Part shown: piece after piece, positions 13,201 through 13,602 of the stretch
How the letters are laid out: every line of letters begins with the position of its first letter
Position numbering within the stretch: position 1 is the stretch's first letter
Assembly: GCF_022846255.1 (NCBI RefSeq)
Contig: NZ_AP025682.1
From: Escherichia coli
Lineage (GTDB): Bacteria > Pseudomonadota > Gammaproteobacteria > Enterobacterales > Enterobacteriaceae
DNA: 64,000 bases
Reading direction: 5' to 3' (one strand)
Program-made: the position numbers and the translations under genes
The notes under the pieces: generated by a model
What the model saw: only the letters and a program-made list of their open reading frames with translations
Databases searched by the model: none
Told to the model about the DNA's origin: nothing

Positions 13201-13400
13201 CACTCTTCGTTCTTTCTGAGCATTGCGTTCAGGATGGTCAGCAATTTACGCATACAGTCAACCAGCGCCACTTTTTGGGTTTTTCCGGCTGCTGGCAGAT
13301 GCATGTAAAACGCCTTTATCACCGGATTAAACCAGGTTACCACAAGCGCTGCCATGTGCAGGGCTGCTCTTGCCTCCGTACGCGCACTGGCGTCGTTCGG
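13201..13400 (-). mobile_element. 3'-terminal remnant of an IS110-family transposase gene
   Basis: Minus-strand translation gives ...ALHMAALVVTWFNPVIKAFYMHLPAAGKTQKVALVDCMRKLLTILNAMLRKNEE-stop, a recognisable IS110-family C-terminus, with no upstream remainder of the gene. Confidence 0.5.
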
Positions 13401-13529
13401 CCAGCAGATATGTGTGGGATAACAGGGATGTTATGTGAACTGAACTGTGTTTTGTTAGCGGGGGATGTTTATTGATGATTCGGGAGTGTTTAAGACCTGA
13501 TGGCGTTATGCTCCCAAGTTTATTTTATA

Positions 13530-13568
13530 TAAAGATCCAAAAGCAAAAACCCGCCTTGTGGGCGGGTT
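13530..13568 (-). terminator. Rho-independent terminator-like hairpin (AACCCGCC / GGCGGGTT) followed by a T-tract on the - strand
   Basis: Inverted repeat at 13547-13568 with TTTTGCTTTT on the - strand immediately after it; lies just 3' of the tRNA-Phe 3'-end remnant. Confidence 0.5.
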
Positions 13569-13580
13569 CTTAAGAATTAG

Positions 13581-13602
13581 TGGTGCCGGACTCGGAATCG
13601 AA
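13581..13602 (-). repeat. Remnant of the 3' end of a tRNA-Phe gene (pheV/pheU-type), putative distal att direct repeat of a tRNA-inserted island
   Basis: The - strand reads TTCGATTCCGAGTCCGGCACCA, which matches the T-arm/acceptor 3' end of E. coli tRNA-Phe apart from one missing G. No tRNA body lies upstream of it. Confidence 0.6.

Follow-up and report, generated by a model that had tools for sequence, protein, structure and literature searches.

The DNA analysed here, called the window, is a 64,000-nt stretch of an Escherichia coli contig. At positions 13581..13602 on its minus strand lies a 22-nt piece of tRNA-Phe, which is very probably the attR (pheV') of a pheV-integrated GI-pheV, the island called PAI-V in ExPEC. 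The DNA right of 13602 is island. All DNA left of it, with a terminator, an IS110 remnant and the kps locus, belongs to the older flank (pheV-yghD) that capsule-positive strains have. The scar is already catalogued, its one-base deletion included, and is an ordinary island boundary with no new biology. The features on the two sides of the junction are listed below.

13200-13382, minus strand: IS110-family transposase 3' remnant, C-terminal ~60 codons and stop without the N-terminal catalytic part (PGAP on strain 042; NF033542)
13383..13532, no strand: conserved spacer between terminator and IS110 remnant, kps-linked flank (the K-12 alignment stops at 13533)
13533..13580, minus strand: native pheV 3' flank, parted from its tRNA, with an intrinsic terminator (K-12 identity; terminator scan)
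13581..13602, minus strand: very probable attR / pheV', unique in the window, matching K-12 pheV and identical to the attR in Table 1 of PMC11537424
13603..13712, no strand: terminal non-coding island stretch from the last island gene to attR, missing in empty-site genomes
13713..14555, minus strand: DUF4942 (YeeW-like) gene, the last island gene (Pfam PF13708, E 1.2e-65; PGAP on strain 042)

The scar and its flank derive from pheV

On the minus strand, 13602..13581 reads TTCGATTCCGAGTCCGGCACCA, that is TTCGATTCCGAGTCCGG-CACCA. This 22-mer is the 3'-terminal 23-nt piece of E. coli tRNA-Phe minus a single G from the GGG run; the K-12 tRNA-Phe genes (pheV and pheU) terminate in ...GGTTCGATTCCGAGTCCGGGCACCA. 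An earlier note on this DNA had described it as the 3' end of tRNA-Phe minus one G, with the tRNA body absent upstream. Both points hold: 22 of 23 nt match K-12 pheV, ARAGORN reports no tRNA gene in the whole window, and the two bases 5' of the 22-mer are T,T versus G,G in the tRNA. Copies at many unrelated sites, which the same note had named as an objection, were not seen in the window, where the 22-mer occurs once even when 3 mismatches are allowed (0 expected from window shuffles). A chance match was rejected.

The 23-mer is present in both K-12 genes, and the 22-mer alone cannot discriminate between pheV and pheU. The flank is more informative. The 48 nt directly 3' of the 22-mer (13580-13533, minus strand) are 100% identical to the pheV downstream sequence of K-12 MG1655, and tRNA end and flank together align with K-12 pheV over 71 nt with one gap (98.6% identity, E 2e-29, BLAST). 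The pheU downstream sequence is unrelated to these 48 nt. Because the flank is of pheV type and the pheU flank is different, the integration site, judged from its sequence context, is pheV rather than pheU, a choice that had been left open before.

The pheV flank carries the hairpin TAAGAACCCGCC-CACAA-GGCGGGTTTTTG followed by CTTTTGG, with 12 pairs and a T-tract (13572-13544, terminator scan). The terminator stretch folds at -23.3 kcal/mol (z = -3.1 versus shuffled controls). The hairpin and T-tract noticed earlier behind the 22-mer are thus the flagged pheV terminator. Two sub-threshold Rfam matches were returned for 12400-14000, P9, a Pseudomonas sRNA (24.6 bits versus a gathering score of 43, E 0.013), and rnk leader (E 0.75). 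Both overlap the pheV terminator (13537-13632, minus strand) and were taken as generic hairpin or terminator likeness.

Empty and occupied sites place the boundary at the tRNA 3' end

An empty site of 774 bp was built in silico by joining K-12 yqgA-pheV to window positions 13580..13100 (minus strand). It was found as one piece, at 99.5–99.7% identity, in 209 complete E. coli genomes, which are annotated with yqgA, tRNA-Phe and IS110 family transposase in this order. The occupied junction (window 13000-14000) is present in 549 complete genomes. The 110 nt at 13603-13712 accompany this 1-kb junction in all 549, and the empty-site genomes join pheV straight to 13580. Since the empty site is intact in 209 genomes, the tRNA 3' end is the exact boundary of the island. 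The comparison with the K-12 empty site suggested earlier gave an identical 48-nt pheV flank and a reconstituted site that is present in complete genomes.

The same string, including the one-base deletion, is given as attR of GI-pheV for strains 042, 536, APEC O1, S88, ED1a, H10407, 55989, REL606 and others (PMC11537424, Table 1). A 22-bp truncated pheV copy beside kpsF was described (PMC10272209, PMC7387560), also as a 22-bp pheV' upstream of kps (PMC7387560). PAI-V is bounded by the K1 capsule locus and the truncated pheV, and at least 14 excision events in CC95 were inferred via the 22-bp repeats, with a circular excision product noted (PMC10272209). The proposal that the 22-mer is the distal att direct repeat of an integrated island is supported by this published attR and by the 209 empty sites.

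Two other origins of the scar were weighed. If it were the decayed rest of a once-complete duplicated tRNA-Phe gene rather than an integrase repeat, the full native terminator behind it would be expected, as with a real gene copy. This origin is nevertheless very improbable: the length equals the published att core (PMC11537424), there is no tRNA similarity just 5' of the 22-mer, and the presence/absence polymorphism breaks precisely at the tRNA 3' end. The scar could also mark a pheU island, as the pheU and pheV genes are sequence-identical and the 22-mer by itself fits either of them. The probability of this is close to nil, because the 48-nt flank is that of pheV and unrelated to that of pheU, and because the neighbours, kps and, in 042, yghD/gsp, are those of the pheV locus. 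The reading as attR of an island at pheV is therefore kept in the following.

The capsule locus and an IS110 remnant form the left flank

The genes of kps region 1 lie left of the junction, as follows.

11406-12425, minus strand: kpsF, first gene of kps region 1 and first intact gene left of the island (Pfam SIS and CBS)
10186-11334, minus strand: kpsE
8486-10165, minus strand: kpsD
7736-8476, minus strand: kpsU
5712-7739, minus strand: kpsC
4487-5677, minus strand: kpsS

PGAP names the kpsF of 042 a KpsF/GutQ family sugar-phosphate isomerase. The kps locus is outside the pheV island, as had been predicted, and the published boundary definition (PMC11537424, PMC10272209) and the empty-site genomes concur. 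Yet kps is itself non-core DNA. Homology to K-12 ends 48 nt past pheV (13533) and, in 042, is found again only past kpsM, at the stop codon of yghD. Of the K-12 intergenic region, about 100 bp are missing from the 042 segments compared (segment positions 2491-2591 in K-12 and 13583-14638 in 042), and no direct repeat was detected at this gap in these segments. In kps region 2 (window 37-4056, plus strand), a 1117-aa protein with a weak HAD-hydrolase match and a hexapeptide-repeat acyltransferase are encoded; region 2 of E. coli 042 has a similar hypothetical protein of ~1112 aa.

On identical DNA in 042, PGAP annotates an "IS110 family transposase, incomplete, missing N-terminus"; the equivalent stretch of the window is 13200-13382 (minus strand). 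Its translation covers positions 281-342 of the 343 of NCBIfam NF033542 (E 5.8e-8), and Pfam gave no match to the fragment at E <= 0.01. At the DNA level, window 13190-13369 (query 1-180) is 86% identical to other annotated E. coli IS110 transposase genes. A complete IS110 element has an N-terminal DEDD/RuvC-like domain, a C-terminal Tnp domain and both ends, and this combination is not found here. The IS110 piece is a dead 3' fragment and a fixed component of the DNA upstream of kpsF, in the kps flank; it was found in 1637 of the 5426 complete genomes. The earlier description of an IS110 3' fragment was thus correct, but its "immediately adjacent" position was not, as ~150 bp separate it from the terminator. 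In the 209 genomes with an empty site, this spacer (13383-13532) runs on without a break to an intact pheV.

The right side is a CP4-44-like island module with unusual cargo

The DUF4942 gene is the distal end of a CP4-44-like backbone, a module that reaches to ~22585. Right of the scar the module encodes, all on the minus strand, DUF4942, DUF5983, CbtA, RadC, DUF932, an Ag43-type autotransporter and a YeeP-like GTPase; DUF957, CbeA, DUF987 and an antirestriction protein also belong to it (PGAP on identical 042 DNA). The gene content on both sides agrees with the earlier statement that the scar parts kps on the left from a CP4-44-like module on the right.

Further into the island, two neighbouring paralogous genes (window 33193-34004) encode DUF7828 and zinc-ribbon proteins of 129 and 141 aa. 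Within the island backbone, they adjoin an inovirus Gp2 / YagK-YfjJ-like gene.

A sugar-acid catabolism cluster (window 43946-52653) is flanked by IS3-family genes. It contains an IclR regulator, a DHDPS-family enzyme, a UxaA/GarD-type dehydratase, a PdxA-family dehydrogenase, GntP and MFS transporters and an amidohydrolase. Its nearest counterparts among 5426 complete E. coli genomes are ~86.6% identical, and no complete E. coli genome exceeds ~87%. With ~86.6% identity at best, the cluster appears to be a divergent paralogous or foreign copy.

Collinear genomes suggest that intact pheV lies beyond the right end

Neither the intact pheV nor a pheV integrase is present in the window. Both ends can be followed in related genomes. 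In E. coli 042 the order is pheV (plus strand), tyrosine integrase, island, DUF4942, 22-mer and kps. Strain 82.0312 is collinear with window 13500-34838 at 99%; 58 kb to the right come int, tRNA-Phe (minus strand), yqgA and speC, and the tRNA is oriented as predicted. The yjh-sgc module at window 59132-64000 is 97.6% identical to a module inside the 110-kb GI-pheV of SCEC020001, where it is oriented as in the window relative to the yee module and pheV follows 46 kb further right in the same orientation. An intact pheV and a P4-type integrase are thus found at the opposite island end in 042, 82.0312 and SCEC020001. The simplest reading, supported by this synteny, is that intact pheV would be found beyond the right end of the window.

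The right part of the window itself is rare. Positions 44000-64000 are contiguous in none of 5426 complete E. coli genomes, and when 57000-61000 was used as a second query in the same set, the right half was nowhere contiguous. Exact-protein look-ups (YjhI and the chimeric EIIC' ORF) led to short-read contigs that span the right end of the window. Logan contig DRR322657_177 (26.6 kb) is 100% identical to window 55713-64000, and GCA_023881025.1 (25,963 bp contig) and SRR26932012 are 99.9% identical over 56326-64000. Judged by their lengths, two of these contigs, of ~26 kb, should stop ~18 kb beyond position 64000, well before the place where pheV is expected. The exact-protein look-up with MtnK returned unrelated complete genomes only.

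Two genomes showed features of their own. In SCEC020001, neither the 22-mer nor the 23-mer has an exact copy at the GI-pheV end next to yghD. In E. coli O157:H16 Santai (NZ_CP007592.1; positions 2932-6185 of the segment examined), a tyrosine integrase gene directly precedes ParDE and a DUF4942/yee module that belongs to another island. No tRNA is annotated between the integrase and these genes, and the arrangement looks like tandem accretion of islands in one chromosomal region.

An argW-type integrase remnant is probably nested in the island

Near its right end the window carries three joined pieces.

57759-58976, minus strand: P4-type tyrosine integrase, argW-associated (Pfam Arm-DNA-bind_3, Phage_int_M and Phage_integrase)
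59125..59139, minus strand: last 15 nt of tRNA-Arg argW (CTGCAGGGGACACCA), an argW 3'-end match at an attL-like junction
59143-59718, minus strand: truncated PTS EIIC pseudogene (Pfam EIIC-GAT positions 96-268 of 394)

The integrase is the only one in the window, and it is of argW type, not a pheV integrase. Many E. coli carry a yfdC-argW-int region to which window 56642-59142 is 99.5% identical. The argW 15-mer joins the EIIC pseudogene instead of a tRNA body, and sgcR-yjhI-yjhH-yjhG follow. The uninterrupted EIIC' reads ...ATTCTGCAGGG followed by TGTGCGC, and argW reads ...ATTCCTGCAGGG followed by GACACCA. The join between EIIC' and argW falls in a shared patch of 8–11 nt, with only ATTC(-)TGCAGGG as common core. 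A join in such a patch is as expected for secondary-site integration, and the sequence suggests that this is a secondary-site junction of attL type. Its reciprocal counterpart (attR or the remaining EIIC') is not in the window. An IS3-family element cuts the argW-type DNA after 2.5 kb. The EIIC'/integrase junction also occurs in the independent assemblies Logan DRR322657, SRR26932012 and GCA_023881025.1, which match the window over ~8 kb (100% for the first, 99.9% for the other two), and is therefore not an artefact peculiar to the window.

Because the sole integrase of the window is an argW-type remnant, the island appears to be composite. The simplest reading makes the argW-type piece an insert that was nested in GI-pheV cargo and has decayed. 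In its specific form this would be a previously undescribed composite, in which an argW-type P4-like element sits at the secondary att ATTCTGCAGGG in a GI-pheV-borne EIIC pseudogene and was eroded by IS3; we put this forward tentatively, as a possibility that is less than even. If true, it would be an island within an island, formed by off-target integrase activity.

A different history would keep the scar as a true pheV attR and make the island a hybrid that arose when DNA recombined on a large scale, for instance through inversion between two P4-like islands, with pheV not just beyond the right end. The integrase-proximal junction is indeed argW-type, with the argW 15-mer fused to the EIIC pseudogene; the other half of this junction is absent from the window, 44000-64000 is contiguous in no complete genome, and rearranged pheV islands exist in some K15 strains (PMC7387560). 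Against this, the yjh-sgc module at 59132-64000 is ordinary GI-pheV cargo in SCEC020001, in the same orientation to yee and pheV, and the argW-type homology is just 2.5 kb long and cut by IS3, which fits a decayed nested insert and not a swapped island end. A hybrid island is thus unlikely. If this stronger version were true, recombination between both islands would have moved pheV off the locus. The decayed nested insert remains our preferred reading.

Proposed origin and consequences

When P4-type tyrosine integrases recombine attP with an attB inside a tRNA 3' end, the tRNA next to the integrase is made functional again and a short duplicate stays behind distally. At this locus, a P4-type tyrosine integrase would have recombined the attP of a circular element with the 3' end of chromosomal pheV. 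Intact pheV would have been restored beside the integrase at the far end (attL), and a 22/23-nt duplicate of the tRNA 3' end would have been left at the kps end. The duplicate still borders the DNA that originally followed pheV, intrinsic terminator included.

Two effects are predicted for the junction. The one-base deletion makes the repeats imperfect, so integrase-mediated excision is expected to be lower with the missing G; in work cited in a passage of PMC11537424, a single mismatch can cut island deletion by orders of magnitude. The displaced pheV terminator has the DUF4942 gene (minus strand) on one side and, on the same strand, the promoter of kps region 1 on the other. From this position between the last island gene and the kps promoter, it probably keeps island transcripts from running on into kps.

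As a landmark the scar is reliable: the mobile pheV island ends exactly there and the older kps flank starts, which is of use for delimiting virulence islands and typing ExPEC genomes. What is added here is that the flank proves pheV over pheU, and that a nested argW-type remnant at a secondary site would give a small example of island growth by accretion. The nested remnant and the unusual cargo are minor points on the mosaic make-up of the island.

Comparison with known islands

The window shares with GI-pheV / PAI-V an attR beside the pheV terminator and kpsF, and a distal "flu/yee" CP4-44-like module. The GI-pheV of 82.0312 is 99% identical to the first 21 kb of the island. Unlike known GI-pheV, the window has a cargo combination at ~34.8-59 kb that is not contiguous in 5426 complete genomes, and it carries the nested argW-type integrase remnant and the sugar-acid cluster with its 86.6% identity.

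Like the P4-family islands CP4-44, CP4-57 and KpLE2, the island of the window occupies the 3' end of a tRNA gene and is marked by a short direct repeat. The backbone common to it and the CP4-type islands comprises a yeeP-like GTPase, Ag43, DUF932, antirestriction protein, RadC, CbeA/CbtA and DUF4942. The island of the window is distinct from the CP4-44 locus of K-12, which is not known to have a kps neighbour or a pheV att site.

With the argW-associated island (yfdC-argW-int), which we take to be at the CPS-53/KpLE1 position in K-12, the window shares 56642-59142, including the last 15 nt of argW. It differs from this island in that the shared piece is not at argW and is joined to an EIIC pseudogene, with the remainder of the element missing.
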